A stretch of 64,000 nucleotides of DNA from an uncultured bacterium. Its GTDB lineage: Bacteria > UBP14 > UBA6098 > B30-G16. The DNA is taken from NCBI GenBank assembly GCA_965552135.1, contig CBEVQY010000003.1, positions 24,632 through 88,631 of the forward strand, given 5' to 3'. Of the stretch, positions 17,249 to 36,109 are shown piece after piece (positions within the stretch are counted from its first letter, which is position 1; the number at the start of each line of letters is the position of its first letter). The notes under the pieces were generated by a model. The model ran no database searches, had not been told where the DNA came from, and saw nothing but the letters and a program-made list of their open reading frames with translations. The position numbers and the translations under genes are program-made.

Positions 17249-18496
17249 ATGGTCAAGTTCGTCTACGACTTGCTTTGGTGGGTCGGGCTTTTTGTTGTGT
17301 GGCCCGTTTTGCTTTTGTGGGGGATCGTTCGCGGCGAGCGCTTGCTCGACCGGCTTGGTCTGTGGCGCGGCGTCCCGAAGGGGTGCGTGTGGATACACGG
17401 GTCGTCTTTGGGGGAGTGCGCCGAGGCGCTGGCGCTGGCAAAGGCTCTTCGAAGGCGCGGCGCACCGATTCTGCTTACGGCAACAACGCTTGCCGGATAC
17501 AGGCGCCTGGTCGAGGACGCCCCGAGGGGGTGCGTTGTCCGCCAGCAGCCCCTCGACCATCCGCTCTGCGTCGCTGCCGCCGCGTCGGCGGCTAAGCCAC
17601 GTCTGCTCGTCGTCCTCGAGTCTGATCTCTGGCTCGGCATGATCTCCGCCGCCCGCGCCGAAGGCGCCAGGGTGATCGTCGCAAGCGCAAAGCTTTCCGA
17701 AAAAACGCTTCGCAGAGCAAAGGGTCTCGAGGGATTTTTCGCCGAGCTCTGGCGGCACGTCGACTTCGTATACGCGAGGAGCAGGCTCGATGCTGCGCGC
17801 TTCGTTGAGGCAGGGCTCGATCCACAAAAGGTGGCGGTTCTGGGGGACCTTAAGCTCTCCGTCGACGTCGGAGAGCCTCTGCCGAAGCCCGAGCGCTTCC
17901 CCATAGTCGTTGCGGGGAGCGTTCGCGCAAAGGAGGAGGTCGTTGTGGTCGACGCCTTCGTCGGGCTGCGGAGGGTTTTTCCAAAGGCACTTTTGGTTTT
18001 GGCGCCGCGGCACCAAGATAGGTTCGACGCCGCCGCAAGGCTTCTGGAGAGGCGGGGAATCCCTTTCTCGAGGCGTTCGCGCTCAAACGGTCCTAAACCT
18101 CAGGACGCGGCGTTTCTGATAGATACGCTGGGCGAGCTTGGGAAGTTCTATTCGTGGGGCGATATAGCGATAGTTGGCGGCACCTTCGCCGACTACGGCG
18201 GGCACAATCCGATAGAGCCCGTTCTCTTCGGCGTGCCTGTGGTTCACGGTCCGAGCACGCACAGCAACGCCGAGCTTTTCGCCCTCGTCGACGAAGCCTG
18301 CGCGGGGGTTTGCGTTGACGCCGATGAGCTTGCCGAGGCGCTTTCGGGGATCCTCTCGGACGAAGCGAGGCTCTCGCGCCTCAAGGACGCCGCGGAGAAA
18401 CTCGCCAACCGACTCTCATCGTTGGGCGACCGCTACGCCCAGGAGATCTACTCGCGGTGGATAAAAAAATGGAGCGTAGGGGATTCGAACCCCTGA
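17249..18496 (+). CDS. waaA: 3-deoxy-D-manno-octulosonic-acid (Kdo) transferase
   Basis: N-terminal membrane anchor, then VWIHGSSLGECAEALALAKAL (Kdo-transferase N-domain) and a GT-B C-terminal domain (IVGGTFADYGGHNPIEPVLFGVPVVHGP). The 3' end overlaps the tRNA on the opposite strand. Confidence 0.85.
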   Translation: MVKFVYDLLWWVGLFVVWPVLLLWGIVRGERLLDRLGLWRGVPKGCVWIHGSSLGECAEALALAKALRRRGAPILLTATTLAGYRRLVEDAPRGCVVRQQPLDHPLCVAAAASAAKPRLLVVLESDLWLGMISAARAEGARVIVASAKLSEKTLRRAKGLEGFFAELWRHVDFVYARSRLDAARFVEAGLDPQKVAVLGDLKLSVDVGEPLPKPERFPIVVAGSVRAKEEVVVVDAFVGLRRVFPKALLVLAPRHQDRFDAAARLLERRGIPFSRRSRSNGPKPQDAAFLIDTLGELGKFYSWGDIAIVGGTFADYGGHNPIEPVLFGVPVVHGPSTHSNAELFALVDEACAGVCVDADELAEALSGILSDEARLSRLKDAAEKLANRLSSLGDRYAQEIYSRWIKKWSVGDSNP

Positions 18497-18542
18497 CCTC
18501 GACGCTGCCAGCGTCGCGCTCTCCCAGCTGAGCTAACGCCCC
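18470..18542 (-). tRNA. tRNA-Ala (anticodon GGC)
   Basis: The minus-strand sequence GGGGCGTTAGCTCAGCTGGGAGAGCGCGACGCTGGCAGCGTCGAGGTCAGGGGTTCGAATCCCCTACGCTCCA folds as a cloverleaf with a G3:U70 pair (the alanine identity element), anticodon loop CTGGCAG and T-loop TTCGAAT. No CCA is encoded. Confidence 0.9.
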
Positions 18543-20619: not shown

Positions 20620-20713
20620 TCTTACGCCCTCCTGCCTAATATTTTACACAAAGCACTAAAATGTCCTCAAGGAACTCGGGTTTACTCGGTATTTTTATCC
20701 TCATTGTATCGTA

Positions 20714-21424
20714 TCATCGGAGCAGAGTTATCCGTTTAATTAGCGTTTGGGCGGAGGTTTTTAGGAGAATGAGATAGACGCCATTGCGAATATCGTCGGA
20801 CGGGGTCCAGAACGTCGTATGAGAACCGGCGCTCAGATGTTCGTTCCTAAGGGCTGCAACAGGATGTCCCATTATATCGCAGATTTTGAGGGAGACATTT
20901 TGATCTAGAGGCAGATCATATCGAATAAGGATCACTTCATTAAAAGGATTGGGCGACACTCTTAGAGTGATTGTGTGAGGTGTGCAGCTTTCCTCTACTT
21001 TAACATAACATGTTTCGAGCTCAACAGCATCCAGTATCTCATCAGGTTCGGTAGGTTCGTAGTCATCGTCCCAATAGACTACAAAGTAAATGGGCAGGTT
21101 GGCATAAGTGGGTATGGTAATCAAGCCTTCAGGAGGATAGGGACAGGTAACTGTCGTTTCAGTAGGGGAGTATCCTCCGCGAGCAATTGCATGATACGAA
21201 TGGAAAAAGTCGGTATCTGCATCCATTACTGCGACATATAAATGCAAGCTGTCATTGGAGGGCAGATTCCACCAATGCAAGGTAAACTCGCAGGAGTACG
21301 GTTCTCCGAGTGCGCAGCATGGAAAATCAGGGGCTATAAACTCAGCTCCCAGGCCCCATATGAGGGGACTTGTGAGTGTAATGAAAGGCGTTAGGATCAA
21401 AAGTCTTTTCGGCAAATTCTCCAT
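20714..21424 (-). CDS. Small secreted hypothetical protein with T9SS C-terminal sorting domain
   Basis: Signal peptide, an unknown roughly 130-aa N-domain, then ITLRVSPNPFNEVILIRYDL...NGVYLILLKTSAQTLIKRITLLR. It lies in the low-GC islet. Confidence 0.65.
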   Translation of the reverse strand: MENLPKRLLILTPFITLTSPLIWGLGAEFIAPDFPCCALGEPYSCEFTLHWWNLPSNDSLHLYVAVMDADTDFFHSYHAIARGGYSPTETTVTCPYPPEGLITIPTYANLPIYFVVYWDDDYEPTEPDEILDAVELETCYVKVEESCTPHTITLRVSPNPFNEVILIRYDLPLDQNVSLKICDIMGHPVAALRNEHLSAGSHTTFWTPSDDIRNGVYLILLKTSAQTLIKRITLLR

Positions 21425-21765: not shown

Positions 21766-23082
21766 TCAGCTCTTCCCAACGACCGAGACGTTATCGAGCC
21801 GTATGTAGGGCGCGAAATATCTGTCGAACCACCTTCCCTCGCGGCTTATGGCGGTGATCTCCTTTAGGTTCTGGTATATGTTTCCGGCGATGGCGGCGTT
21901 TTTGATTCTTCCTGTGATCTCGCCGTCCTCGATCTTGAACGCAGTCGACACGGGGTTCGAGAACGCCCCCGATAGGACGTTGCCCTGTCCGAGCCCGAGC
22001 ACAGACTCGATCATTATGCCCTCTTTTACGTCCGCCAGGATTTCCGCAAGCGGGGTTTCGCCCTCCTTTATGATGACGTTCGACGGGCTTGGCGCTGGCG
22101 GTGAGAAGAGGGAGCGTTCCGCGCAGCCGTTAGTCTGGTAGCCCGACTTTTTTGCGGTGACTATGTCGAATATGAAGTTTTTGAGCACGCCTTCTTCGAC
22201 AAGGGCGAGCCGCCTTTTGGGAACGCCCTCGCAGTCGAAGGGTTTCGACGCGGGCTTGCGGGCAAGGGTACCGTCGTCGTAAACGCAGAGCTTCGGGTCG
22301 AAAAGCCTTTCGCCAAGCTTGTTGTATATGGGGCTGCTTTTCGTGTAGATGTTGTTGCCGGAAAGTCCGGCAAGAAGCGGTATCAGAAGGAGCATGGTGC
22401 CCATTGGGGTGAAGACGACGGGCACCCTTCCCGAGGGCACCGGAAGGATTCTGTCGGCGTAGCGCATGACGTCGTCTATCTTTGCGGCGATGGGGTTGAC
22501 CGCCTCGTCCGTCTTTTGGGGCAGATGGGTGTCGACGTAGTAGTCCCAGGCCATGTAGATATCGCCCTCTTTCATCCTAATGATGACGCCCGAGAGGGAG
22601 AACTCGGTGGCTTCGTATGCGCCGTCGAATCCCTCGGTGTTGACGACGTGTATGCGCTTTACCCCCGATGTGGCGGCGACCTCCATGTCGCAGTCGGAGC
22701 GGTACTTCTCGAGCCTCGCCCTGAGCTCCTTGCAGAATTCAACGAGCGTTGAAACCGTTGCCGACTCAACGCGGGGGTCGTAGATGTCAAGCTTTGGGAC
22801 CTCCGTTTTGCCGGGGAAGGTTATATCCACTTTTTCGCTTATTTTGGCTGCGTTTAGGGCGTCGTCGATTATTTTTTCTGCGGCGTTTTCGTCGGTTGTG
22901 GCGGCGGTTCCGATTCTGCCGCCCACATTCAGCCGGACTGCCCAGCCGCGCAGGCGGCTGCTACTGCTGCTGTGCACCTTCCATCCCTTGAAGTGCAGCG
23001 CCCGCGAAACGCCGTCTACGTGGTATACCTCCGCCGAATCCGATACCTTGCTCGCCCTCTCGAGTATATCGTAGATATCCAT
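21766..23082 (-). CDS. pmbA: TldE/PmbA-family metalloprotease subunit
   Basis: TldD/PmbA-fold protein lacking the HExxxH motif, which is typical of the PmbA partner. It lies immediately downstream of tldD. A strong RBS GAAAGGAG precedes ATG 23082. The track ORF starts upstream at 23115. Confidence 0.85.
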   Translation of the reverse strand: MDIYDILERASKVSDSAEVYHVDGVSRALHFKGWKVHSSSSSRLRGWAVRLNVGGRIGTAATTDENAAEKIIDDALNAAKISEKVDITFPGKTEVPKLDIYDPRVESATVSTLVEFCKELRARLEKYRSDCDMEVAATSGVKRIHVVNTEGFDGAYEATEFSLSGVIIRMKEGDIYMAWDYYVDTHLPQKTDEAVNPIAAKIDDVMRYADRILPVPSGRVPVVFTPMGTMLLLIPLLAGLSGNNIYTKSSPIYNKLGERLFDPKLCVYDDGTLARKPASKPFDCEGVPKRRLALVEEGVLKNFIFDIVTAKKSGYQTNGCAERSLFSPPAPSPSNVIIKEGETPLAEILADVKEGIMIESVLGLGQGNVLSGAFSNPVSTAFKIEDGEITGRIKNAAIAGNIYQNLKEITAISREGRWFDRYFAPYIRLDNVSVVGKS

Positions 23083-23101
23083 GCTGCGCTCCTTTCGGTT
23101 T

Positions 23102-24478
23102 TTATCTTCCAGCAATGATCACGTTTCTTATCCTTATGTGTGGGCTTCCTTCGGCTGTGGGGACGGCTTGACCGGCTTTACCGCAAAAGCCTGCGTTGGG
23201 GCTCCAGGTGAAGTCGTCTGCTATCTGTTCGATGTTGGCGAGCGTTTCGAAGAGGTTTCCCTGCAGAACGACGTCGCGGACCATCTCGGCGAGCTTGCCG
23301 TCCCTTATCATGTAGCCGTAGCCCGCCGAGAACGAGAAGTTCTCGAGCTGGGTTTGTCCGCCGTAGGCGTCGATGGCGTATACGCCGAGCTTTATCCCGT
23401 CGAATATTTGGTCTGCGGGGTGTGGTCCTGCCTCGATGGCTGTGTTGGTCATCCTCACGATGGGTGGATGGCTGTAGCTTTCGGCGCGGGCGTTCCCTGT
23501 GGGCTTTTCGCCAAGCTTCGCCGCCGTCTGGCGCGAGTGAAGTCTGCCGACGAGAACGCCCTCCCTTATCAAATACGTCCGCTCCGCCGGAACACCCTCG
23601 TCGTCGTACGTGATCGTCCCCCTTATCTCGGGCATAACGGAGCCGTCGTCGAACACGTTGAGGAACTCGGGACCGAAGCGCCTGCCGAGCTTCATCATCT
23701 CCTGCGCCTGCGGGTTCTCCTCTATATGGTCAGCCTCGGAGAGGTGTCCGAAGGCTTCGTGGATGAAGACGCCGGCAAGCGTTGGGTCGAGGACGACGGT
23801 GTAAATTCCCCCCTTGACCGGCTCGGCTTCGAGCAAACCCAGCGCTGTGTCCACAACCTTTTTGACCATTCCGTCGAGCTTGAGGAGGTCCCCAAACGAG
23901 CTTCGGGATGCGAAGCTATCGTGAGCCGACTGGACGAGGTCGCCTTTTCGTGCTCTTACGGCGCATCGCAGGCTGCAGTCGGCGCGCGAGCGAAGGATGT
24001 GCGCACCCTCGGTGGTCACAAAGAACCCCTCGGTGAAGCTCTCGCTGTAGCGCAGTGAACGCTCTATTATCCTGTCGCCGCCTTCTGCGACAAGCTCGTC
24101 GTACCTGCGCAAAAGCTCGTTCTTCTCGGCGACGGAGTGGCTGCGGAAGTCGTCGGAGATCTTAGCTTTCACCTCGTCCTCGACCGGCTCGACCTCGGCA
24201 AGCTTTATGGGTTCGTCGGGTATCAGGGCTTTGGATGCGTCAAGCGCGTCGGCAACGGCTTTCTCGATGTCGTCGACGCTGTTGAACGAGGCGAAGCCCC
24301 AGCCATGTCCGGGCAGAAGAACCCGAACGGCGCCGCCCATGTCAACCGATGGGCTTGCCGACTCAAGAACACCGTTTTTCAAAAGCATCGAAAACGATGT
24401 GGTCCTCTGAAACCTAAGCTCCCCGTAGCCCTCTATCTTCCGCAGAGCCTGTGTTGCCCTGTCGAGGATATCGTCCAT
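23102..24478 (-). CDS. tldD: TldD metalloprotease
   Basis: HEAFGH zinc-binding motif (VFIHEAFGHLSEADHI) plus the conserved C-terminal GxxxxxG TldD fold, over its full length. Confidence 0.9.
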   Translation of the reverse strand: MDDILDRATQALRKIEGYGELRFQRTTSFSMLLKNGVLESASPSVDMGGAVRVLLPGHGWGFASFNSVDDIEKAVADALDASKALIPDEPIKLAEVEPVEDEVKAKISDDFRSHSVAEKNELLRRYDELVAEGGDRIIERSLRYSESFTEGFFVTTEGAHILRSRADCSLRCAVRARKGDLVQSAHDSFASRSSFGDLLKLDGMVKKVVDTALGLLEAEPVKGGIYTVVLDPTLAGVFIHEAFGHLSEADHIEENPQAQEMMKLGRRFGPEFLNVFDDGSVMPEIRGTITYDDEGVPAERTYLIREGVLVGRLHSRQTAAKLGEKPTGNARAESYSHPPIVRMTNTAIEAGPHPADQIFDGIKLGVYAIDAYGGQTQLENFSFSAGYGYMIRDGKLAEMVRDVVLQGNLFETLANIEQIADDFTWSPNAGFCGKAGQAVPTAEGSPHIRIRNVIIAGR

Positions 24479-24493
24479 TTTGACCTCCGGGTG

Positions 24494-25669
24494 TTATTCG
24501 CTTTCGACGTGGGTCATAGCCCCCTCCAGGCGGGGGATGAGTTCTTCGCCGAAGAAGTCGGCGACGAAGCTTGAGACTGCTTTCCTCATTTCGTTCAGGA
24601 AGTTTTTCACGCTGAACCTTCGGGCATTTTGTGCGGCAAGCTCGGGGTCGAACTTCATCTGTTCGAACCTGACGACGGCGTCTATAAGCGCCTCGGGCGT
24701 AGGCTCGTGGAAGAAGAGTCCCGTTACGCCGTCGATGACCGTCTCGGTGACGCCGCCCTTGCCGTACGCTATGACGGGTCTGCCGGCCGCCTGGCTTTCG
24801 ACGGGAACCATACCGAAGTCCTCCTCGCCGGGGAAGATGACGGCTCTGGCGTGCCGCAAAAGCTCAACCTTCTTCTCCTTCGTGACGAAGCCCAAGAACT
24901 TAATGTTGGGTTTGGACATCCTCTGCAGGCGTTTGAGCTGCGGTCCTGTGCCCGCGACCAAAAGCCGCTTCCCGAGCCTGTTGAAAGCCCTTACGGCTAT
25001 GTCGATCCTCTTGTACGGAACGAGCCGCGACAGACAGAGGTAGTAGTCCCCGACCTCGTCGGCGGGTGTTATGTGCGCTATCTCGACGGGCGGGTAGACG
25101 ACCACGGCGTCGCGCCTGTAGAATTTCGAGATCCTCCTGCGAACCGTCTCGGAGTTGGCGATGAAGTAGTCGACGCGGTCAGCCGAAGCCTTATCCCAAA
25201 GGCGAAGGTAGTTGAAGGCAAAAGGGTAGACGAGCTTGCTTATGAACTTCGAGTAGCTCTGCTTGTATTCGAAGTAAAGTTCCCAGGCCTGTCTCATCGG
25301 CGTGTGGCAGTAGCATATATGCAGGGTATCGCTGCGGGTGAGGACACCTTTCGACCACAGGTACGATGAGCTTATTACGAGGTCGTAGCCGCGCAGGTCG
25401 ATCTGCTCGACCATCGTCGGGTAGAGCAGGAGGTAGTATTTGTAGAGTTTTCGCTTGAACGGCAGAAACCTGCTCCATCCAACGGGTCTTATGTCCCATC
25501 CTCTGAAGTCGGGGGGGACGAGCTTTGGGTCGTATATCAGCGTGTAGACGGGTGCCGCAGGGAAGAGGTGATGCAGCCACCTCAGAACCGTCTCGGCTCC
25601 GCCGCTTTGGTTCAGGTAGTCGTGGACGAGCGCCACACGAAAAGCTTTTTCGCCTATGAAGCTCATCAA
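24494..25669 (-). CDS. GT4-family glycosyltransferase
   Basis: GT-B fold with the C-terminal EEDFGMVPVESQAAGRPVIAYGKGGVTETV (E-x7-E-like) motif typical of GT4. Confidence 0.85.
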   Translation of the reverse strand: MMSFIGEKAFRVALVHDYLNQSGGAETVLRWLHHLFPAAPVYTLIYDPKLVPPDFRGWDIRPVGWSRFLPFKRKLYKYYLLLYPTMVEQIDLRGYDLVISSSYLWSKGVLTRSDTLHICYCHTPMRQAWELYFEYKQSYSKFISKLVYPFAFNYLRLWDKASADRVDYFIANSETVRRRISKFYRRDAVVVYPPVEIAHITPADEVGDYYLCLSRLVPYKRIDIAVRAFNRLGKRLLVAGTGPQLKRLQRMSKPNIKFLGFVTKEKKVELLRHARAVIFPGEEDFGMVPVESQAAGRPVIAYGKGGVTETVIDGVTGLFFHEPTPEALIDAVVRFEQMKFDPELAAQNARRFSVKNFLNEMRKAVSSFVADFFGEELIPRLEGAMTHVESE

Positions 25670-25698
25670 AATCTTTTAATAATAACTCAACTGCATCC

Positions 25699-26829
25699 CT
25701 ATCGCAAGCGGAATACGAAGCCGTCCTGTGTGGAGAGGAAGATGCTTTTCCCGTCGGATGCTGGAGGTTGCCTCACCTTCTTTCCGATGTCGAGTTCGCC
25801 CCGCACTGTGCCGTCTTCGATCGAGATCAGGAAGATCCTTCCCGCGTACGTTGCCACGACTGCGTCGTCGCCCACAAGGATCGGCGGTGCAGCCACAACC
25901 GACGAGAGGTTTGTGCGCCACAGGGGCTCTCCGAGCGCGTTTACGCAAAGCACGTTGCCGCTCGTTGTGGCGGCTACGATGAGTTCTTCGCGCGCCGCCG
26001 GCGCAAGGAGTCGCAGACCGAGCTCTTTTCTCCACAGCGTCGAGCCGTCGTCCCTTTTGAGGGCAGAGATGGCGTTGTCGCTCGCTGCGATAACCGCTTT
26101 CCCAGCAAGCGCGACGGCTGTGACGGCGTGCTCAACCCGCCTCCGCCAGATGACGTCGCCGCCGGTTGTGACCGCGCAGACCAAGTTTCCCGCGGCAACC
26201 CAGAGCGTATCGCCACATACGGCTGGTTGCGCCAGTGCGGGTCCTCCGAGGTCGAGCTTCAGCGTTGTCTGCCCCGTCGCCGCCGAAAGCAAAAAGAGCC
26301 TCCCCGAGAGGGTTGCCAGCGCAAGCAGGGAGCCCACAGGCGCCGGTGTGGTTGCGACGTCGCCGGCAAACCTTCGCCAAATCAGCTTGTCGCGCAACAG
26401 GTTATAGACGCCGACGCGGTTCCAGTTGCCGAAGCCCGCGAAGATCATAAGCGAGTCGCGGAGGGTCGGCGGCAGCTGCATCGGCGTGTCGACCCAAAGC
26501 CTTGCGGCGGGCTTCCCCGTTGCCGCGTCGAGCGCCACAACGTACTTCGACGGCGTCCCCACGAAGACGAGCTCACCGTAAATCGTTGGCGCCGTGGGAT
26601 CGAGGGAGCGGATATCCGTCCTCCAGGCGATGTCAAGCCTACGGGAAAGCGTCCCCTCCGTTGCGCCGCTGTTTCCGACGTCGTGTCGCGGCAAGGGCCA
26701 TTCGCCGGCCCGGGCTATGTCCTCTGCCGTAAGCAGCGGTTTTCGGGTGCAGCCCGTGACAAGCGCAGCCAAAAGCGCAAGCACAAGGGCAGACTTCGCG
26801 TATCGCCGCCCTGAAGCAGGCGAGTTCAT
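25699..26829 (-). CDS. PQQ-like beta-propeller repeat lipoprotein (BamB-like)
   Basis: Start MNSPASGRRYAKSALVLALLAALVTGC, with a lipobox LVTGC. Repeated LWR/VWRR...G beta-propeller blades. Its start overlaps the stop of the upstream giant gene as ATGA at 26829. The track ORF extends further upstream (to 27294) through R-rich sequence, which is unlikely to be real. Confidence 0.7.
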   Translation of the reverse strand: MNSPASGRRYAKSALVLALLAALVTGCTRKPLLTAEDIARAGEWPLPRHDVGNSGATEGTLSRRLDIAWRTDIRSLDPTAPTIYGELVFVGTPSKYVVALDAATGKPAARLWVDTPMQLPPTLRDSLMIFAGFGNWNRVGVYNLLRDKLIWRRFAGDVATTPAPVGSLLALATLSGRLFLLSAATGQTTLKLDLGGPALAQPAVCGDTLWVAAGNLVCAVTTGGDVIWRRRVEHAVTAVALAGKAVIAASDNAISALKRDDGSTLWRKELGLRLLAPAAREELIVAATTSGNVLCVNALGEPLWRTNLSSVVAAPPILVGDDAVVATYAGRIFLISIEDGTVRGELDIGKKVRQPPASDGKSIFLSTQDGFVFRLR

Positions 26830-29800
26830 CAGCGCACCAAAAGCGTCTTCCTCACGAACCTGCGTCCGCCCACGTCCACGACGAGCAGGTAAATCCCCGA
26901 CGAGGCGTTCTTCGCGCTCCACCTCAGGGTGTATCTGCCCGCGGGGAGGACCTTTCCGCCCGCGATCGTCGCGACGACGCGCCCGGCAAGGTCGGTGACT
27001 CTGGCGCTCACAGCGGTTGGCTCCGCCAGGTACAGGTCGACCTCGGTGACGCTGTTGAAGGGATTTGGGTACGGCATACCGACCGACGTCCTTCGCGGCA
27101 GCGTCTCGCACACCTTGGTCGTCGAGGTGTCTATGAACGCGACGGCGCCGCTGTCGACCGGGAGACACGCAGCGGGATTCCCGTAGCTCACGTACGCAAG
27201 CCCTTCGCCGTAAGCGTTTTCGACGCCTATTGTCGCGACTTCGCGGGCAGCATCGGGCACCGAGAGGTAGACCACCTGCCCCGTGAGGATGCACGGCGAG
27301 GCGCCAGCTTCAACGATGGGTATCCAAAGCTGGAACGTCGCGGGCTTGCCGCTTGGGTCGAAGTAGGCGTAAAAGTCCTTCCACTCCACCACGAAGAAGG
27401 AGTCTCCGCACGGGGTCTCGAACGGGGCGGCGCTGTAGCCGTAGAAGATCCGCCCGGCGGGGAGGGTGTCCTCAGGCGGCTCCGGAGTGAGGTCGGTCCA
27501 CAGGGCGGCAAAGAGCAGGTTAGGCAGGCTGCTGTCGGGGATGGAGCCGTTCGTGTAGGCGTAGTCGCAGGTCGTGTCGAACGTCACGAAGCCGTTGGAG
27601 CATATCCTCACCCAGGGCTCGGCTATTTCCTCCCCGATGAAGGTTATGGGCGGTCCGAGGGGTTTGGTTTCGGAAATGAAGTAATCTGTGACCGAGTGGT
27701 TTGGTGTTCCGGAGCCGCCCTGGTGGGGGTCGAGCTCGACCCAGGCGAAGGTGGGCACGAAGGGTGCATCGCCCGCGTCGGCGAAGTTGTCGGCGAAGAT
27801 AAGTGCTAAAGCATCGTTGGCGCCGTGGTGCGGATCACCTATCGCCGATGTGAACCGCATCGCCGGTGCGCCCTCGGGCAGAACGCTGCGGTTGCCAGCA
27901 GTGTCCCACGCAACGAAGTAGTACGAAAGCGTCTCACCCTCCGCAAGCTCCGAAAGCAGATAGCCGTAAGTGGTTCCCAACGTCGTTTCGGCTGTGGCGA
28001 ATGAGGCTTCACCGCCGCATTCGTAGTAGAGCGTTTCTGCGGCGAGGTCTGCCGCGTTGATCTGCGCGAAGAGCCAAAGCACAAAGCCCTCGCTTGCGCA
28101 AAGGTACACAAGGCTTTCGGGCTCGTGCGCTATCTGCGGCGGGAAGGTATCAACGAACTCGGATGGGGGAACGAATCTTATAGCAAGCTCGTCTATGACG
28201 GGGTTTTCGGGCGGGGCACCGTTGTACTCGTAGATAAGCCCCGAGGTCCCGTCGGGGGATGATATTCCCACCGTCGCCGAGTTGCCGCGAACGCGACCTA
28301 TATCCTCAACCCCCACAAGCCCGGTGTACTGGAGGACGATGCCTCCGTCCTCGGCGAGGATGACCTCGAAGGTTATGCGGTCCGTCGTCGACGAGTACGG
28401 AACGTAGACGTTGGAGAAGATTACGAGGAAGCGCTGAGTTCCGTCGGAGATGTCCGTTTTGGTGTATATCTTCGACGCCGGCGATGCCATGTCGTTGACC
28501 TTCAGGTCGTCCCAGAAGGGGGCGATAACTCCAGCGATGGTTGTGGTTGGCAGGCTGTCGTTCCAGGCGTGGGAGCTTGTAAGCGGCTCGAACGCCAAAA
28601 AGCCGTTGGTCGAAACCCAGACCGTATCGAACGACGTTTCGTAGAACGGGAAGCTGAACGGCAGGGGCAGGGCAGTGTATTCGTCGTCGCCGGCGAGGTC
28701 GAGCTCGGTTGCGTCGGAGGTGATTATCTCCTCGAACTCCGGAGCCTCGGCGCCGTCGTAGTAGTTGTCGTACCACATGTATCCCGCGACGTCGGGTCCG
28801 CCGAAGCCCACGTGGTGCAGCCCCTCGAACCTGACCGTGAGGGTGTCGTCGCTTGGGACCTCGTCGCCGTAGCAGCTTGTGACGAAGACGGCGGAGTACG
28901 AATCGGCGGGGAAGTCGGTCCAGGGCGAGAAGAGGACGGTATCGGCTGTGCCCGAGGCTATGTCTACGTACTGGGTATCGGCGTAGACTAAGCCGCTTGC
29001 GTCGCCTGTGATCGTGAGGACCACAGGCACGTGTGCTTCGTCGAACGAGCCGAAGTTCCGCACCGCGCAGGCAGGGGTTATGACCTCGATGTTCACAACG
29101 CGACCAAAGGGCGCAATAGCCGAAACAACGGCTATGTTGTGGTCGACTGGAGCGGGCGGCAGAAACTCTATCCTAAGCGAGTCCGAAAGCGAAGCCTCGT
29201 TGTACGAATACTGCAGCCCTACGGTGCCGTCCTCGTTTTCGATCCCTATAGTGGCGCTGGCGCCGTGACTGTAGCTCGGTTCGCCCTCGAGGGTCGCATC
29301 GAGGTACTGGAAGACGATTGCGCCGTCTCCGGATGAGCTTTCGTAGAGTATAGCCTCGTACGTCCACACGTCCTCGATGAAGCCAAGGCGGAAGAAGTTG
29401 TACCAGATCACCGCAAACCACCGCTCCGGCTCCTCCCCGCCGCTTACGGCGTATATCGCCGTCTCTATCGTGTCCACGTCGTAGTACTTTTGGTCGTCCC
29501 AGAGGGGCAGGATGAGCCCGTTGGGCGTCGATGCGTCGGGGATAGGCTCGTTGAAGAACTCGGTGACCTCGTCGGGATAGAACGACAGAAGCCCGTTCGT
29601 GCTGACCCAGATGCTGTCGTAGTCTATGCCGTAGAACGAGAAGGTGAACGGCAGGTGGACGACCAAGGCTTCGTCGTCATCGCCCGGAAGGAAGGCGAGA
29701 GGGGTGTCCGCTGGGCTTGGGGATATCCACTCGAACGCGACGCCGGGTTCTTCGCTGTCGCGGAATGTGTAGCCGTAGTCGTCCGGTCCGCCCGTCGAAG

Positions 29801-29861
29801 CCCAAACTGCAAAGAAAGCCAAAACCACAACCCAAAAAGCTGCGCGCAACATGGGATTCAC
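26829..29861 (-). CDS. Large secreted protein (1010 aa) with three copies of an unrecognised ~200-aa module and a T9SS C-terminal sorting domain
   Basis: Signal peptide MNPMLRAAFWVVVLAFFAVWA. The repeated modules are marked by GYxxxD...LPFxFxFYxxxYDxxWVSTNGxLxF. The C-terminus MPYPNPFNSVTEVDLYL...SGIYLLVVDVGGRRFVRKTLLVR is a T9SS CTD. Confidence 0.8.
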   Translation of the reverse strand: MNPMLRAAFWVVVLAFFAVWASTGGPDDYGYTFRDSEEPGVAFEWISPSPADTPLAFLPGDDDEALVVHLPFTFSFYGIDYDSIWVSTNGLLSFYPDEVTEFFNEPIPDASTPNGLILPLWDDQKYYDVDTIETAIYAVSGGEEPERWFAVIWYNFFRLGFIEDVWTYEAILYESSSGDGAIVFQYLDATLEGEPSYSHGASATIGIENEDGTVGLQYSYNEASLSDSLRIEFLPPAPVDHNIAVVSAIAPFGRVVNIEVITPACAVRNFGSFDEAHVPVVLTITGDASGLVYADTQYVDIASGTADTVLFSPWTDFPADSYSAVFVTSCYGDEVPSDDTLTVRFEGLHHVGFGGPDVAGYMWYDNYYDGAEAPEFEEIITSDATELDLAGDDEYTALPLPFSFPFYETSFDTVWVSTNGFLAFEPLTSSHAWNDSLPTTTIAGVIAPFWDDLKVNDMASPASKIYTKTDISDGTQRFLVIFSNVYVPYSSTTDRITFEVILAEDGGIVLQYTGLVGVEDIGRVRGNSATVGISSPDGTSGLIYEYNGAPPENPVIDELAIRFVPPSEFVDTFPPQIAHEPESLVYLCASEGFVLWLFAQINAADLAAETLYYECGGEASFATAETTLGTTYGYLLSELAEGETLSYYFVAWDTAGNRSVLPEGAPAMRFTSAIGDPHHGANDALALIFADNFADAGDAPFVPTFAWVELDPHQGGSGTPNHSVTDYFISETKPLGPPITFIGEEIAEPWVRICSNGFVTFDTTCDYAYTNGSIPDSSLPNLLFAALWTDLTPEPPEDTLPAGRIFYGYSAAPFETPCGDSFFVVEWKDFYAYFDPSGKPATFQLWIPIVEAGASPCILTGQVVYLSVPDAAREVATIGVENAYGEGLAYVSYGNPAACLPVDSGAVAFIDTSTTKVCETLPRRTSVGMPYPNPFNSVTEVDLYLAEPTAVSARVTDLAGRVVATIAGGKVLPAGRYTLRWSAKNASSGIYLLVVDVGGRRFVRKTLLVR

Positions 29862-29865
29862 CTCC

Positions 29866-30258
29866 CTACTTTATAAGTCCCAGAAACCTGTCGAGGTCCT
29901 CTGGGTTAACGAACCTTATGCTGCCGTAGTAACATCCCTTCCTGTTGCAGAACTGAAGCTCGCCCCCTGTGGCAAGCTCGATTTTGATCTGATCAGCTTT
30001 GCAGTAGCACTTGCCCGCTATGGGCAGGGGCTTCTCGCAGTGCGGGCAGAAGAACTTCACCACATCCCCGGGGAGGATGTCGAGCTCTTCGGGCTCTATG
30101 GTTTCGTGGTCGCCGTAGATGGCGGAAAGCCAGATGTAGCCCCGATGCCCTTTGTTCTCCACAAGGAACCTGAGGGCGGGCTTGTTTTTAATGAGGTGCT
30201 CTTCGTCGTTTAGCTTCTGGCGGCAAAGCGGGCAGATCGCTTCTATGTAGTGGTACAT
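29866..30258 (-). CDS. Cys-rich zinc-ribbon protein (CxxC...CPxC...CxC...Cx4C), unrecognised family, paralog of 32943..33464
   Basis: 130 aa. Cysteine pairs CPLC, CPHC, CYC and CNRKGC. Shares LSxIxGDH...CPxC...KCxxC...FCxxxGC...GDL motifs with the 173-aa protein at 32943..33464. Confidence 0.55.
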   Translation of the reverse strand: MYHYIEAICPLCRQKLNDEEHLIKNKPALRFLVENKGHRGYIWLSAIYGDHETIEPEELDILPGDVVKFFCPHCEKPLPIAGKCYCKADQIKIELATGGELQFCNRKGCYYGSIRFVNPEDLDRFLGLIK

Positions 30259-30270
30259 CGCACGACCTCC

Positions 30271-31629
30271 TCAGAATTTGTACATTCCGCCGATCGTAAC
30301 AAACCCTCCTGCGCTTTCGCCGACGAGGTTCCGTCTGTACGATATGTCGAGCAATACGTTTCCGAACCTGAGCATGGCGCCGGCACCTACGCCGAAGCCC
30401 GAAATCCAAACCGACTCGAAGTACGACTCCTTTTCGGCGAGGTACACGTAGCCCACATCCGCACCAGCCGAGAGGTAGAGCAAAAGCGGGCTTGCGTAGT
30501 AGAAGTTGTAGAGCGCCTCGACGCCAAAGCGCATCGTGTTCACGCTGGCTACGGTGTTGTTGAGCTTGCTTATCCTCGCCTCGGTGCGAAACGTGTCGAC
30601 TATAATGGTATCCGTGCCCGTCGGTATAGTGTCCTGATAGAAGAATGTGTCAATGCTAATTACGAGGGTATCCTGCAGGTAGTTCCATTTGACGTTGCTT
30701 CTGCCGAAGATGACGTTCCCGCGGAGGATGAATGGTCCCACAAAGTACCCCGCGCCGAGGCTGAACTCGGAAAGGGATGTAAGCCCCAGCGCGTTTACAG
30801 TATCGAACTCGCTTGGAGACTCGTAACCGCCGGGAACGTCCTTGAGGTAAATCCTTTGGGTTATGCAGCTTTGGCGCTTCTCGTCCCTTATGGAGAAGAG
30901 GTAGTTTTCGGTTGGGCTGAAGGTGTCGAAGAAAAGCCCAACAACTCGTCTCCTCGTCGTTCGGAACTCCTCCCTTTCGCGCAGAAGGGCAAGTTTTCTT
31001 TCGGCAAGCTCCTTTTGGTGCTCAAGCTTTTGCTTCTGGATCCTCTCGCGGCTTTCTATCTCGGACTTCAAAAGCTCCATATCCCTTATGCCCGCCTGCG
31101 CCTTCTCCAAAAACTCGCCGCCGGGGTTCTTCTCGATGTAGGTCCTGTAGTATCGTATCGCTTCGTCCGCGAGGTCGGATCTTGAGAGCTGGTGAGCTTT
31201 CTCACCGAAAAGCTGCGCAAGGTGATAATAGTATTGGGGGTCGAGCTCCACGAGCTTGAGCCAGACGTCGTAGTACTCGTAGTGGTTCTCGAGGGCTTTT
31301 TCGAAGTGGCTTTGTGCTTTTCCTCTGTCGCCTGCGGCGAGGTATATAAGTCCTGCCTTGTATTGCAGGAAGGCGTTTTGAGGGCGCAGCGCCAGCGCCT
31401 TCTCGATGTAGTTCGTTGCCGTCTCGTAGTCGCCCTCTTCGTAGGCGAGCCAGGCGTAGTTGTAGAGGAACTCAGGGTTGTTCAGGTTCTCCTCAAGCTC
31501 GCCCACCATATCGGTCAGGGACCTGTCGGTGTACGTTGGATATTCCCGGGGCTTTTGGAATATATCCTCGAACTCCTGCGGATGCGTCGCAACGGTAAGG
31601 AGCGCCAGAGCCCAAAAGATCCTTCTCAT
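30271..31629 (-). CDS. TPR-repeat / coiled-coil protein with C-terminal outer-membrane beta-barrel-like domain
   Basis: Signal peptide, TPR-like helices (YNYAWLAYEEGDYETATNYIEKALAL...), a charged coiled-coil (ERIQKQKLEHQKELAERKLALLRE), then alternating-hydrophobic beta-strands ending in an aromatic C-terminus (...GGMYKF), which is typical of OMP barrels. Confidence 0.6.
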   Translation of the reverse strand: MRRIFWALALLTVATHPQEFEDIFQKPREYPTYTDRSLTDMVGELEENLNNPEFLYNYAWLAYEEGDYETATNYIEKALALRPQNAFLQYKAGLIYLAAGDRGKAQSHFEKALENHYEYYDVWLKLVELDPQYYYHLAQLFGEKAHQLSRSDLADEAIRYYRTYIEKNPGGEFLEKAQAGIRDMELLKSEIESRERIQKQKLEHQKELAERKLALLREREEFRTTRRRVVGLFFDTFSPTENYLFSIRDEKRQSCITQRIYLKDVPGGYESPSEFDTVNALGLTSLSEFSLGAGYFVGPFILRGNVIFGRSNVKWNYLQDTLVISIDTFFYQDTIPTGTDTIIVDTFRTEARISKLNNTVASVNTMRFGVEALYNFYYASPLLLYLSAGADVGYVYLAEKESYFESVWISGFGVGAGAMLRFGNVLLDISYRRNLVGESAGGFVTIGGMYKF

Positions 31630-32900
31630 GCTGCCTCCTTACTGTCTTTGTTTATCTGCGGCGGAAACGCCCCAAGCGCCTTTTCGTAGAACGCGGTTAT
31701 TGGCTTGAAGTTTCTCTCCAAAAGCGTCACCAGTGCGGCGGCAAACGCGATGCTAAGAAACACAACGACGTACGCAACGCCCTGGATGAGGTCGCCGTGT
31801 TCGACGCCTTTCTGCATGGGTAGCGATGCGAGCACCGCGGCGGCAAGTCCCTTCGGAACCAAAACCGACATCACCATCGCGTCGTAGCGCGGAACCTTCT
31901 TGGGCATCGCAAACCTCACAACCAAAAGCCTCACCAGAAATATCAAAACGACAAGCCCAAAGCCTGCGGCTATTGTTCCCGCACGGGAGAATTTAATGGA
32001 AATCCCCAGGTAAAGAAAGAAAAAGATTTTGAGCAGGAAGACGATCTCCTCGAAGAAGGTTTTTTCGTACCGAGACATTTCGTCTGGCTTTTTTACCGCG
32101 AAGCGGGTGTGCTTTTGGATTCGCTCGATTGGCACGTCCTTTATGTTCGCCAGTGTTACTCCGAATGCGAGCGCTGCTATTGCGCCGCTGTAGCCGAGGA
32201 ACTCCGCAAGCCCGTAGAGGACGAAGATATACGCCATCGTCGCAAGCGCAGTTACGGGAAAGCCCTTAAGCTTCCGTAAAAGCAGTGCCCAAACCGCTCC
32301 GCCGCAAAAGCCTATCGCCGAGGCAAGGACCAGCGAGGCTATGATCTGACCGATTATGCGCCCCGTCTCCACGGCTCCCGAGGCGTACGCCTGAAGCAGG
32401 CTCATCGCAACGACTATGCAGATCACGTCGGTTATCGCGGACTCCAGAAAGAGCACAGCGTACGCCATGGGTGAGAGCCTGAGCTTTTGTATGATCGGTA
32501 TGACCACCGCCGATGATGTTCCGCCGACGATGGCGCCGGCCATCGCCGCCACAAGCGGCTTCATCCCGAAAAGCCCCCAGCATGCGAGCGCAACGACGAG
32601 CATCGTTGCCAGAAAGCAGCTCAGCGAAACGAGCGCCGTCTCGTCAAGGGATTCGCGCAGCTGGCGGACGCTTAGGTTTATGCCGCCCTCAAACAGGATC
32701 ACGATGAGCGCCACCGTCGTGGCGACGTCGCCAAGCCTCCCGAAGTGCTCCTGCTTAACAAGACCCGTCACAGGTCCAAGTATTATCCCCAAGAGGGTGA
32801 GGAGCAGCACGTCGGGTATCCTTGTGCGCTCGAAGATAGACGTGAAGAGGTAGGCGAGGAAGATTACGAGTCCCGCGCCCAGAACCACAAGCGACATCAC
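31626..32900 (-). CDS. Cation:proton antiporter (CPA family Na+/H+ exchanger-like)
   Basis: About 12 TM helices. An N-terminal LGIILGP...ILFEGG motif is characteristic of Na_H_Exchanger (PF00999). A 4-nt overlap with the downstream gene. Confidence 0.85.
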   Translation of the reverse strand: MMSLVVLGAGLVIFLAYLFTSIFERTRIPDVLLLTLLGIILGPVTGLVKQEHFGRLGDVATTVALIVILFEGGINLSVRQLRESLDETALVSLSCFLATMLVVALACWGLFGMKPLVAAMAGAIVGGTSSAVVIPIIQKLRLSPMAYAVLFLESAITDVICIVVAMSLLQAYASGAVETGRIIGQIIASLVLASAIGFCGGAVWALLLRKLKGFPVTALATMAYIFVLYGLAEFLGYSGAIAALAFGVTLANIKDVPIERIQKHTRFAVKKPDEMSRYEKTFFEEIVFLLKIFFFLYLGISIKFSRAGTIAAGFGLVVLIFLVRLLVVRFAMPKKVPRYDAMVMSVLVPKGLAAAVLASLPMQKGVEHGDLIQGVAYVVVFLSIAFAAALVTLLERNFKPITAFYEKALGAFPPQINKDSKEAA

Positions 32901-32942
32901 AAAGCCCCCGTTTGGAGTTGCGTTTTGCGGGGTGCGCGACGT

Positions 32943-33464
32943 CTACCATGCGCCCTCGACGTACTCGCGGCTTATCAGGTCGCCCGCGCGAACTATATAT
33001 GAGCTCGGACAACCAACGACGTCGCAGAAGGCTATGCCGTCGGAGACATCGAACTCCTCCGACAGCGAAAGCACCCTTATCTCGCCCTGCGAGCACTGGT
33101 CGCACTTGGTCAGCACGGGGATTTCGACCCCGCAGTAGGGGCACATAACGCTGACCTTCTCGCCGTCGACAAGCTTTACGCCGATGGAGAGGCGCGTGTG
33201 ATCGCCGAAGATGGGCGAAAGCACAACCTCGCCCTCATCGCCGCCAGGGCGCCTGACCCTCAGGCGAATCCCAGGACAGCCATTAAAGCTCGCGTAGTCC
33301 CATATCAGGTTGTGCCCGTTAGGGCAAAAGACCTTCTTGACGACCACAACCTTCCTGTGTGATTCCTTCGCTTCGCGTCTGAGCCTAAGCTCCCTCGGGT
33401 CGGGGATGATCATGAACCCGCGTTCGTCGAATATATCGCCCATCCGAAAACCTCCCTTGTTCAT
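32943..33464 (-). CDS. Cys-rich zinc-ribbon protein, paralog of 29866..30258
   Basis: 173 aa, with CPNGH, MCPYC, KCDQC and FCDVVGC motifs. Alignable to the 130-aa paralog (LSPIFGDH versus LSAIYGDH). A 4-nt overlap with apgM upstream. Confidence 0.55.
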   Translation of the reverse strand: MNKGGFRMGDIFDERGFMIIPDPRELRLRREAKESHRKVVVVKKVFCPNGHNLIWDYASFNGCPGIRLRVRRPGGDEGEVVLSPIFGDHTRLSIGVKLVDGEKVSVMCPYCGVEIPVLTKCDQCSQGEIRVLSLSEEFDVSDGIAFCDVVGCPSSYIVRAGDLISREYVEGAW

Positions 33465-34663
33465 GCCAGGAACTTGAGGAGTCTTCCCGCATCAGCCATC
33501 ATGAGAAGGATTATCGCCTCGGCAGGGATTATGCCGAGTATTCCCTTTGCGCACTCGCGCTCCGAGAACTTCTTTGCGTCGTCGGCGAATGTGTAGCGCC
33601 CCTTTATAAGGAGCGGCACCGGGTGCCAGCTGTGCCCGCCGTAAACCGCGGGCGTCGAGTGATCACCCGTTATCGTTATAACGTCGGGCGAAAGCTCCAA
33701 AAGCTCGGGAAGCTTCCTGTCGACCTCCTCTATCACCCGAACCTTCCCCTCGAAGTCCTTGTCCTCGCCGCACGAGTCGGTCTTCTTGATGTGGATGAAG
33801 AAGAAGTCGTATTCGTCCCACAGGTTTCTTGCAAGCTCGAACTCCTCCTCGATGGTCTCGCCCACGGGCGGTGTATCCATCCCCACTATTCGCGCAAGCC
33901 CGCGGTACATGGGGTACGACGCGATGCCAACCGCCCTCATGCCGTATTTCTCGGTCGAGGTCTTTATGTCCATAAGCGTTGAGTAGCCCCGCAAAAGGAC
34001 GGTGTTTGCCGGGTATTCGTCTTCGAGGATCTGCGTTGCCCGCTCGACGAACTCGTTTATGATTCTCGCCGTTTTTTCGGCGGCGCGGGAAAGCGGCATG
34101 GCTTTGACCGGGGGTTTCCCCGCGACCTGCGGGTCGGCGTCGGTGACGTCGGGCACAAGGCCGGGGCCGCGGAAGACGACCGCAAAGCGGTAGTCCTTGC
34201 CGGCGGCGATGTCGACCGTTATGTCCTCTATGGCGGTTATGTTTTCGCGGAGTTTTGCCACAAGCCTTTTGCAAAGCTCGGTGGGGATTCTTCCGGCTCG
34301 GCGGTCGGTGATAATGCCGTCCTTGAGCGTGGCGAAGTTGCCGCGCGCAGCAAGATCCCCAGGACCAACGTCAAGACCCAGACCAAAGGCTTCGAGTATC
34401 CCCCTGCGGATGTTGTACTTGAGGGGGTTGTATCCGAACAGTCCGAGGTGTCCGGGCGCGCTACCGGGCGTTATGCCGTATCCGACGGGTATGTGCAGTC
34501 CGCACGAGCCTGCCGCAGCCAGGGCGTCCATATTGGGCGTGTTGGCTACCTCAAGCTCCGTGACGCCCTCGGCGTTGGTCGTGCCGCCCAAACCGTCGAG
34601 AACAAGCAGAACAAGCTTCGTGTCGTTCTTAACGATCAGCTGCGGAAGGATTTCCTCGTACAT
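33461..34663 (-). CDS. apgM: 2,3-bisphosphoglycerate-independent phosphoglycerate mutase, archaeal type
   Basis: 400 aa. LVLLVLDGLGG...ANTPNMD (metalloenzyme domain) and ITGDHSTP...GGHSWHPVP match the ApgM family (PF10143 + PF01676). Confidence 0.85.
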   Translation of the reverse strand: MYEEILPQLIVKNDTKLVLLVLDGLGGTTNAEGVTELEVANTPNMDALAAAGSCGLHIPVGYGITPGSAPGHLGLFGYNPLKYNIRRGILEAFGLGLDVGPGDLAARGNFATLKDGIITDRRAGRIPTELCKRLVAKLRENITAIEDITVDIAAGKDYRFAVVFRGPGLVPDVTDADPQVAGKPPVKAMPLSRAAEKTARIINEFVERATQILEDEYPANTVLLRGYSTLMDIKTSTEKYGMRAVGIASYPMYRGLARIVGMDTPPVGETIEEEFELARNLWDEYDFFFIHIKKTDSCGEDKDFEGKVRVIEEVDRKLPELLELSPDVITITGDHSTPAVYGGHSWHPVPLLIKGRYTFADDAKKFSERECAKGILGIIPAEAIILLMMADAGRLLKFLA

Positions 34664-34864: not shown

Positions 34865-36109
34865 CTATTCGCCCTCCCACTTCTTGACTATGATCGTTGC
34901 GTTGTGTCCGCCGAAGCCGAAGGAGTTGGAGAGGGCGATCTTCGGCTTTGCCTCGACCTTCTCCTGGACAATGTTCAGCCCTTCGCATTCGGGCTCGAGG
35001 TTTTCGATGTTTATCGATGGGTGCACCCAGCCGCTTTTGAGGGACATAACGGTAGCGATAAGCTCGACCGCGCCCGCAGCACCCAGCAGATGCCCTATCA
35101 TCGACTTCGAGGAGTTGATCAGAGGCTTGCCGGAGTTTGTGCCGAACACCTTCTTGAGCGCCTTTGCTTCGCTTATGTCGCCTGCGGGCGTGGACGTCCC
35201 GTGCGCGTTGACGTAGTCGATGTCGCCGGGGGTGAGTCCTGCGTCGGCTATCGCTTTTTGCATAACCTCAACGGCGCCCAGCCCGTCCTCGTGGGGAGCT
35301 GTGATGTGGTATGCGTCGCCCGTCTCGGCGTACCCTATGATCTCCGCGAGTATCGGTGCTCCGCGGCGCTTGGCGCTCTCAAGCTCCTCCAAAACCAAAA
35401 CCCCAGCGCCCTCGGCCATAAGGAAGCCGTCTCTGTCTTTGTCGAACGGTCTTGATGCGCGTTTGGGGTCGTCGTTTCGTGTGGTGAGCGCCCTTGCGGC
35501 GCAGAATCCGGCGTACGCCAGCGGGTGCAGTGGTGCCTCGCTGCCGCCGGTGACCATAAGGTCGGCTCGACCCTCACGTATCGCGAGGTAGGAGTTGCCT
35601 ATTGCGTGCGTTCCCGAGGCGCAGGCGCTTGTGGTGGTGTAGTTCGGTCCGCGCAGGTTGTAGCGGATCGAAATAAGCGCCGAGGCTATGTCGGAGATCA
35701 TCATGGGTATTAAAAACGGGCTTACGCGCCGCGGTCCCCGCTCGAGCAGGACCTTGTGCTGGTCAAGCAGCGTCGTTATTCCGCCGATGCCCGAGCCGAT
35801 GAGGACGCCGCCGCGCTGTGGGTCGTACCCGTTTGGTGTAAGCCCCGCCTGCCTGCAAGCCTGTTCGGCGGCAACTATCGCGTACTGGGCGAAAAGGTCG
35901 AGGCGACGCGCCTCCTTCGGATCGATATACTCGCTCGGGTCAAAATCCTTGACCTCCGCCGCTATCCGCGACGGCAGGTTGGATGCGTCGAACCTCGTGA
36001 GCGGACCTGCACCGCTTTCGCCGGCAAGAAGGTTGGACCAAAACGTGTCGACGTCGTTTCCGAGGGGCGTAACCGCCCCAACGCCGGTGATGACCACCCT
36101 GCGCCTCAT
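34865..36109 (-). CDS. fabF: Beta-ketoacyl-[acyl-carrier-protein] synthase II
   Basis: Active-site Cys in ...TTSACASGTHAIG..., the His-His motif (HGTSTP...GHLLGAAG) and a C-terminal NSFGFGGHNATIIV. Lies immediately downstream of acpP. Confidence 0.9.
   Translation of the reverse strand: MRRRVVITGVGAVTPLGNDVDTFWSNLLAGESGAGPLTRFDASNLPSRIAAEVKDFDPSEYIDPKEARRLDLFAQYAIVAAEQACRQAGLTPNGYDPQRGGVLIGSGIGGITTLLDQHKVLLERGPRRVSPFLIPMMISDIASALISIRYNLRGPNYTTTSACASGTHAIGNSYLAIREGRADLMVTGGSEAPLHPLAYAGFCAARALTTRNDDPKRASRPFDKDRDGFLMAEGAGVLVLEELESAKRRGAPILAEIIGYAETGDAYHITAPHEDGLGAVEVMQKAIADAGLTPGDIDYVNAHGTSTPAGDISEAKALKKVFGTNSGKPLINSSKSMIGHLLGAAGAVELIATVMSLKSGWVHPSINIENLEPECEGLNIVQEKVEAKPKIALSNSFGFGGHNATIIVKKWEGE

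Follow-up and report, generated by a model that had tools for sequence, protein, structure and literature searches.

Ten genes lie one behind the other on the same strand, with very little space between them. Do they form a functional system? The question is raised by positions 21766–34663 of a 64-kb stretch of DNA from an uncultured bacterium (hereafter the window, meaning the whole stretch that was analyzed), where the listing of open reading frames (ORFs) shows ten ORFs, all co-directional on the minus strand. The products are a phosphoglycerate mutase (ApgM), two zinc-ribbon proteins (ZnR173 and ZnR130), a cation/proton antiporter (CPA), an outer-membrane protein with TPR repeats (TPR-OMP), a candidate type IX secretion system (T9SS) cargo, a PQQ-repeat lipoprotein (PQQ), a glycosyltransferase (GT4), and the protease subunits TldD and PmbA/TldE. 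An initial annotation assigned these identities and proposed that the ten genes work together on the cargo. The identities match the results of Pfam and NCBIfam profile searches, in which families were assigned against the cut-offs given below. For the region as a whole, we favor a different reading, to which we assign a probability of about 0.75: it would be a long directon of functionally unrelated modules in a compact genome, not a ten-gene secretion/maturation system.

Gene order in related genomes

Gene neighborhoods were obtained from nine distinct related uncultured genomes (47–65% identity), and every ORF of the window was compared against them. ZnR130 is found directly downstream of TPR-OMP in all six informative relatives. 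It is 65–83% identical across relatives, more conserved than the neighboring genes. Orthologs of the cargo (42–50% identity) follow ZnR130 at loci L004, L005, L009/L026 and L025, counted as 3/4 informative relatives. An amino-acid kinase comes next after the cargo at L005, and an asparaginase after ZnR130 in AUK196, where no cargo is adjacent. Of eight informative relatives, four have an antiporter ortholog (57–63% identity) upstream of TPR-OMP. These are the only parts of the proposed ten-gene system that recur. A sub-cluster of zinc ribbon, antiporter and TPR-barrel, named in the initial annotation as one that relatives might share, is indeed syntenic, and the cargo can be added to it. Conservation of a second such subset (cargo, PQQ, GT4 and TldD/TldE) was looked for in the relatives and not seen.

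The relatives carry two further genes at this position. One, encoding an FlpD/MvhD-like protein, lies directly upstream of TPR-OMP in 8/9 relatives (one contig is truncated and shows the iron–sulfur (FeS) gene only), and its products are 76–99% identical among relatives. The other, encoding a two-[4Fe-4S] protein of ∼350 aa (Fer4/FeS), usually accompanies FlpD, between the antiporter and TPR-OMP. Homologs of FlpD and Fer4 are absent from the entire 64-kb window, where the antiporter gene directly overlaps TPR-OMP (∼31629). The block conserved in the lineage would be FlpD–FeS protein–TPR-OMP–ZnR130, and the window appears to have lost the first two genes. Beyond the block, every genome has different flanks, with IspD, ScpA, Omp85, FeoA or QueA upstream and an amino-acid kinase or asparaginase downstream. 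That the block is kept while its flanks are scrambled argues that it has been selectively retained. One sub-lineage shows a further neighbor connected with envelope biogenesis: immediately upstream of FlpD–Fer4–TPR-OMP–ZnR130 is an Omp85/POTRA (BamA-like) gene (L006, 6332–8188; L022, 4960–6816), and SecDF and TamB are encoded nearby.

The other six genes—apgM, ZnR173, PQQ, GT4, TldD and PmbA—are not beside the core in any relative with enough flanking sequence. No homologs of ApgM, TldD or PmbA occur in ∼305 kb of collected loci, those of the relatives included, and the sole GT4-like match there, in L017, is weak (30% over 102 aa). PQQ has one clear ortholog (39% identity), in the metagenome-assembled genome (MAG) JALTEE, where it adjoins a divergently oriented gene for a DAO-type oxidoreductase, not the cargo; another contig of the same MAG carries CPA–FlpD–Fer4–TPR-OMP. 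The context of ZnR173 was obtained from a metagenome scan with a two-sequence alignment, which returned three loci. Its orthologs (54–62% identity) have Endonuclease_NS/acyl-CoA dehydrogenase genes beside them, or PcrB on one side and an AI-2E transporter on the other, and one of them comes from the same metagenome as L004, on a different contig.

In the reading we propose, transcription of the directon probably yields one or two polycistronic messages, and the directon brings together separate modules. ApgM would be a glycolytic housekeeping gene within this composite, and ZnR173 a relocated member of its family. CPA, TPR-OMP, ZnR130 and the cargo would be the remnant of a lineage block, (CPA)–FlpD–FeS protein–TPR-OMP–ZnR130–(cargo). 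The BamB-like lipoprotein, GT4 and the TldD/TldE pair would constitute further modules. Such an arrangement could be explained with no cross-talk among the ten genes.

Several points weigh against this reading. The contigs of the relatives are mostly short, such that context beyond the cargo is available in two only (L005 and AUK196), and for PQQ in one. Moreover, the relatives are only 47–65% identical, and more of the cluster might be preserved in closer genomes. A functional link specific to this species would be compatible with the lack of synteny, and a 1-nt overlap of the cargo and PQQ genes, described below, suggests co-translation in the source genome.

Junctions and transcription signals

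The case for a single operon had been built in part on ATGA overlaps at four junctions. Only one of these, between CPA and TPR-OMP at 31626/31629, is robust. At the cargo/PQQ junction, the PQQ ORF begins with the ATG at 26829, and the overlap with the cargo stop codon is 1 nt (TGATG) rather than ATGA. For ZnR173, all seven aligned orthologs (7/7) begin at Met8, and a Shine–Dalgarno (SD) sequence, AAGGGAGG, precedes the corresponding ATG at 33443. This is the probable start, giving a 17-nt gap after apgM; the alternative ATG at 33464 would overlap apgM. Finally, the TTG start of PmbA that would define the 23102/23115 junction is unlikely. A much better candidate is the ATG at 23082, which has AAAGGAG before it and leaves a 19-nt gap.

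Intergenic distances within the run range from –4 to +45 nt, and nearly every gene is preceded by an SD sequence of its own. Between fabF and apgM there is a terminator-like hairpin (Table 1), which is likely to be the 5′ boundary of the transcription unit, and a gap of 341 nt follows PmbA. Given this upstream hairpin and downstream gap, co-transcription of the ten genes is plausible. The numbers of promoter-like sites (7; shuffled sequence, 5.1 ± 2.2) and of terminator-like sites (23; shuffled sequence, 18.4 ± 5.4) are at chance levels, and no convincing internal terminator was found. A pair of sigma-70-like hexamers (TTGCGA-17-TATTAT, 25679..25707, minus strand) falls in the AT-rich 29-nt gap between PQQ and GT4. 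As a possible internal promoter, it would split the run in two; because such matches are not enriched over shuffles, we regard it as only a lead.

The operon architecture described earlier is therefore partly right: the genes share a strand, the gaps are short, and a convincing internal terminator is missing. However, gaps of –4 to +20 nt and same-strand runs of several genes are found throughout the 64-kb window, and hence the packing belongs to the genome and not to the cluster. Nor does composition set the run apart. G+C content at third codon positions (GC3) is uniform across it (0.70–0.79) and in line with the remainder of the window, on which grounds horizontal acquisition of the cluster was rejected.

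Products of the run

Features of the run are listed in Table 1.

Table 1. Genes of the minus-strand run, in order of transcription, with the features immediately upstream
Feature	Coordinates	Strand	Length (aa)	Basis and remarks
fabF	34865–36109			Upstream neighbor of apgM; PF00109, PF02801
Terminator-like hairpin	34796–34773	–		Between fabF and apgM; 9-bp stem, 6 GC pairs, T-rich tail
apgM, cofactor-independent phosphoglycerate mutase	33461..34663	–	400	First gene of the run
ZnR173, Cys-rich zinc-ribbon protein	32943..33443	–	173 as annotated	Probable start Met8 (ATG 33443)
CPA-type cation/proton antiporter, Na+/H+-exchanger type	31626..32900	–	424	PF00999, 141 bits
TPR-OMP	30271..31629	–	452	TPR matches; AF2 model
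ZnR130, Cys8 zinc-ribbon protein	29866..30258	–	130	No signal peptide
T9SS cargo (candidate), three NIDO-like modules	26829..29861	–	1010	PF06119, TIGR04183
PQQ-repeat/BamB-like beta-propeller lipoprotein	25699..26829	–	376	PF13360, 88 bits
GT4 glycosyltransferase, cytoplasmic	24494..25669	–	391	PF00534, 92 bits; PF13439
TldD metalloprotease subunit	23102..24478	–	458	Three PmbA_TldD domains; HEAFGH
PmbA/TldE, non-catalytic partner	21766..23082	–	438 from ATG 23082	Three PmbA_TldD domains

ApgM scores 561.9 bits against NF003160 (cut-off 468) and 353.8 bits against TIGR00306 (cut-off 320), and also matches PF10143 and PF01676; by these equivalog-level matches, it is an archaeal-type cofactor-independent phosphoglycerate mutase. 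GT4 has no equivalog-level match in NCBIfam. Signal peptides are absent from ApgM, ZnR130, ZnR173, GT4, TldD and TldE. The exported products are TPR-OMP, the PQQ lipoprotein and the cargo, and CPA is an inner-membrane protein. Searched against the defense models of PADLOC, the ten proteins gave no match at E ≤ 1e-3, and an Rfam scan gave a tRNA as its sole match.

The PQQ lipoprotein has a signal peptide that ends in a lipobox (LVTGC), followed by propeller repeats of the PQQ_2 type. Its scores against BamB models are 88 bits for TIGR03300 (cut-off 285.2) and 48 bits for NF008351 (cut-off 423). We consider this protein BamB-like, but not demonstrably BamB.

In both TldD and PmbA, matches to PF01523, PF19290 and PF19289 are all above cut-off. 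In TldD/TldE proteases, the HExxxH motif is found in the catalytic subunit TldD, and the partner is non-catalytic (PMC5810440). Accordingly placed, HEAFGH occupies residues 240–245 of TldD in the window, and PmbA/TldE is devoid of HExxxH. A cysteine of TldD lies ∼26 residues from the C-terminus, versus 27 in E. coli (where Cys454 is the third metal ligand), a comparison made by position only. No precursor of a RiPP (a peptide made on the ribosome and modified after translation) or microcin, and no toxin–antitoxin partner, was noticed near the two genes, though no systematic search was made. The pair looks like a canonical cytoplasmic protease, and a link to the cargo is unsupported.

The zinc-ribbon family

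The two zinc-ribbon proteins had been called paralogs, and the comparison bears this out (29% identity over 90 aa, pairwise E = 3e-10). They share eight conserved cysteines, and neither matches a curated family in Pfam or NCBIfam. The AlphaFold2 (AF2) model of ZnR130 is confident (pLDDT 94), and no PDB structure matches it. A profile search of 1.84 billion 50%-identity cluster representatives yielded 356 relatives at E ≤ 1e-3. They sort into four groups: proteins of ∼130 aa that stand alone; proteins like ZnR173, ∼160 aa long, in which the motifs FDxxGxLxIP (N-terminal) and CPNGH occur; tandem duplications of ∼280 aa; and fusions to NuoE-like proteins. In the last group, which accounts for at least five cluster representatives, a NuoE-like, thioredoxin-like [2Fe-2S] ferredoxin (PF01257) bears the ZnR domain at its C-terminus. 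One such fusion (L029/L030, 7001–7900) heads a NuoE–NuoF–NuoG-like–NfnAB-like operon. Literature searches for NuoE with a zinc ribbon found no paper describing the combination. Of the nearest ZnR130-like proteins outside the lineage, P0067 is on a contig of only 1.4 kb, and P0071 adjoins unrelated genes.

Starting from what is observed at the locus, namely gene identities, spacing and the conservation of neighbors, we infer functions for the core as follows. ZnR130 would be a cytoplasmic protein, predicted to bind metal. The ties of its family—adjacency to FlpD and the FeS protein, and fusion to NuoE-like ferredoxins—seem to associate it with redox complexes of the cytoplasm rather than with secretion. 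The family, widespread and uncharacterized, is probably the only element of the locus that is even mildly novel.

These ties invite an explanation of the conserved block that differs from ours. ZnR130, or the ZnR family at large, might serve cytoplasmic flavin/FeS redox complexes as an accessory subunit that binds metal. FlpD–FeS protein–ZnR130 would then be the actual unit, and TPR-OMP, CPA and the cargo its co-transcribed passengers. The position of FlpD and the FeS protein immediately upstream in 8/9 relatives, the fusions to PF01257 and the operon that one of them heads, and the eight conserved cysteines are consistent with this idea. Yet the window keeps ZnR130 with no FlpD or Fer4 homolog anywhere in its 64 kb, TPR-OMP always lies between Fer4 and ZnR130, and the stand-alone relatives (P0071 and the ZnR173 orthologs) are not next to redox genes. 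We regard this explanation as rather unlikely.

TPR-OMP

TPR-OMP consists of a signal peptide, a TPR domain (38–167), a long helix (174–224), and a small beta-barrel (228–452) ending in ...KF. In the AF2 model, the barrel resembles those of OmpA and OprF. Among 5.8 billion proteins, the family comprises 12 full-length clusters (47–63% identity), all from uncultured bacteria that are unclassified; some bear isolate labels, Guaymas (Guay16) or AUK, and one is labeled “Zixibacteria”. From these features, TPR-OMP would be a periplasmic TPR scaffold whose small OmpA-like barrel holds it at the outer membrane, serving as an anchor and not as a channel. Its role may be to tether envelope proteins or to act as their chaperone, the neighboring surface cargo being one example. 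A role as an exporter like BcsC or PgaA was considered and rejected, as the barrel is small and OmpA-like; the large C-terminal export barrel and adjacent synthase that go with the BcsC/PgaA/PelB type are not seen here. Pfam and NCBIfam searches gave no homology of TPR-OMP to known T9SS components.

The T9SS cargo

The cargo has the two hallmarks of a type A T9SS substrate, an N-terminal signal peptide and a C-terminal sorting domain, as judged from its sequence. Its N-terminus is hydrophobic, and residues 931–1005 match TIGR04183 (27.3 bits; cut-off 23); PF18962, with 23.3 bits, stays slightly under its cut-off of 27. Between the signal peptide and the type A domain (931–1006) lie three NIDO-like modules, at about 62–237, 392–567 and 750–915. 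The initial annotation spoke of a novel module, thrice repeated. The threefold repeat is real. It was missed by a BLAST self-comparison of the whole protein and found by comparing segments: copies 1 and 2 are 38% identical over 181 aa (E = 3e-33), and copy 3 matches copy 2 (E = 8e-9) and copy 1 (E = 6e-6). Novelty, on the other hand, does not hold up, given that PF06119 (NIDO) scores 42 bits against a cut-off of 25, a match covering only residues 413–459 of copy 2. Copies 1 and 3 are called NIDO-like because of their internal similarity to copy 2. No paper describing NIDO in combination with T9SS was found in literature searches.

Other genes of the window resemble T9SS substrates. Downstream of the cluster (18823–21424, minus strand), two genes of 598 and 236 aa encode proteins resembling T9SS C-terminal sorting domains. 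For the 236-aa product, the Pfam score is 26.0 bits, slightly below the cut-off of 27; for the 598-aa product, support comes from tBLASTn only. Both genes have a GC3 of ∼0.45, versus ∼0.75 elsewhere, in a region with G+C content of 0.47–0.50 that adjoins a tRNA-Ala gene (18470–18542), and they look recently acquired. In addition, a 1515-aa ORF at 2734–7281 (plus strand) has a C-terminus that matches T9SS C-terminal-domain regions in the relatives' loci, regions also matched by the cargo. Hence, the window encodes at least four candidate T9SS substrates.

Explanations that involve the cargo

Accessory genes next to T9SS cargo genes, such as the sprF-like genes of Flavobacterium, follow a logic that might apply here. 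The core (TPR-OMP, ZnR130, the NIDO cargo and sometimes CPA) could be a cargo-handling module in which TPR-OMP acts as a cargo-specific adaptor or anchor at the outer membrane. The cargo follows TPR-OMP–ZnR130 in the window and in 3/4 informative relatives despite the scrambled flanks, and the model of TPR-OMP suggests an outer-membrane anchor bearing a TPR domain for protein binding. Set against this are AUK196, which keeps TPR-OMP–ZnR130 with no cargo adjacent; ZnR130 itself, which is cytoplasmic and more conserved than either neighbor; FlpD and Fer4, the most constant neighbors, which are cytoplasmic redox genes; and TPR-OMP, with its lack of homology to known T9SS components. On balance, we find a cargo-handling module quite unlikely.

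The redox and cargo ideas might also be combined. (FlpD–FeS protein)–TPR-OMP–ZnR130–(NIDO cargo) would then be a functional unit, in which an undescribed Cys8 metal-binding fold links redox complexes of the cytoplasm with a TPR scaffold in the outer membrane and a surface protein. We consider such coupling quite unlikely. In a weaker version of this reading, the ZnR domain would be a new accessory module in electron-transfer complexes of the NuoE/FlpD type.

It had also been suggested that the cargo is glycosylated, or matured by TldD/TldE, at the outer membrane. This does not fit the predicted locations: TldD/TldE and GT4 have no signal peptides and so probably cannot act on the cargo at the outer membrane, the cargo being exported by Sec and T9SS. 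TldD/TldE is, besides, a closed-shell protease, which only unfolded peptides can enter, via a narrow pore (PMC5810440). The full proposal, a single system of envelope biogenesis with GT4 glycosylating the T9SS cargo, TldD/TldE maturing it by proteolysis, and the PQQ lipoprotein and TPR-OMP assisting, is very improbable: co-direction, tight spacing with no convincing internal terminator, the 1-nt cargo/PQQ overlap and the presence of four envelope proteins speak for it, but no informative relative shows synteny with the core for six of the ten genes, both supposed cargo-modifying activities are misplaced in the way just described, ApgM is a glycolytic enzyme, and packing is equally tight between unrelated genes elsewhere in the window. 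The ten products share neither a single compartment nor a single pathway.

Implications

The directon of unrelated modules that we favor carries a caution. Compact genomes yield long same-strand runs, complete with stop/start overlaps, between unrelated genes, and therefore packing alone is no evidence for a system. As framed in the initial annotation, the cluster has little novelty, though a four-gene sub-block of it appears conserved. Residual interest lies in two elements. One is the small, highly conserved Cys8 family, with its confident predicted fold that lacks a PDB match and its repeated fusions to NuoE-like ferredoxins. The other is a lineage-restricted TPR protein with an OmpA-like barrel anchor, always paired with one member of the ZnR family. 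Both would be modest additions to the uncharacterized domains of uncultured hydrothermal-sediment bacteria.

Comparison with known systems

TldD and PmbA of the window resemble TldD/TldE of E. coli (PMC5810440) in being adjacent paralogs with three PmbA_TldD domains apiece, with HExxxH in TldD only, and with no signal peptides. They differ in that both remain below the equivalog cut-offs of NCBIfam (285 versus 635 bits for archaeal TldD; 104 versus 438 bits for PmbA).

Among NuoE-like (PF01257) subunits of flavin redox complexes of the NuoEFG/HydABC type (Bfu family), the likeness is that proteins of the NuoE-like kind at the head of NuoE–NuoF–NuoG-like operons carry a ZnR domain as a C-terminal extension. 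Unlike such subunits, ZnR130 and ZnR173 stand alone, the cluster contains no NuoE or NuoF gene, and the fusion is seen in distant relatives only.

Like known T9SS cargos with NIDO modules, the cargo combines a signal peptide and a Por_Secre_tail (TIGR04183) with extracellular NIDO-like modules. It differs from the characterized T9SS cargos of the Bacteroidota in its uncultured, unclassified host and in having three diverged NIDO-like copies.

For TPR-OMP, the nearest known kinds are outer-membrane TPR scaffolds, namely BamD, the TPR domain of BepA, PilW and LpoP, together with the exporters that join TPRs to a barrel, BcsC, PgaA and PelB.

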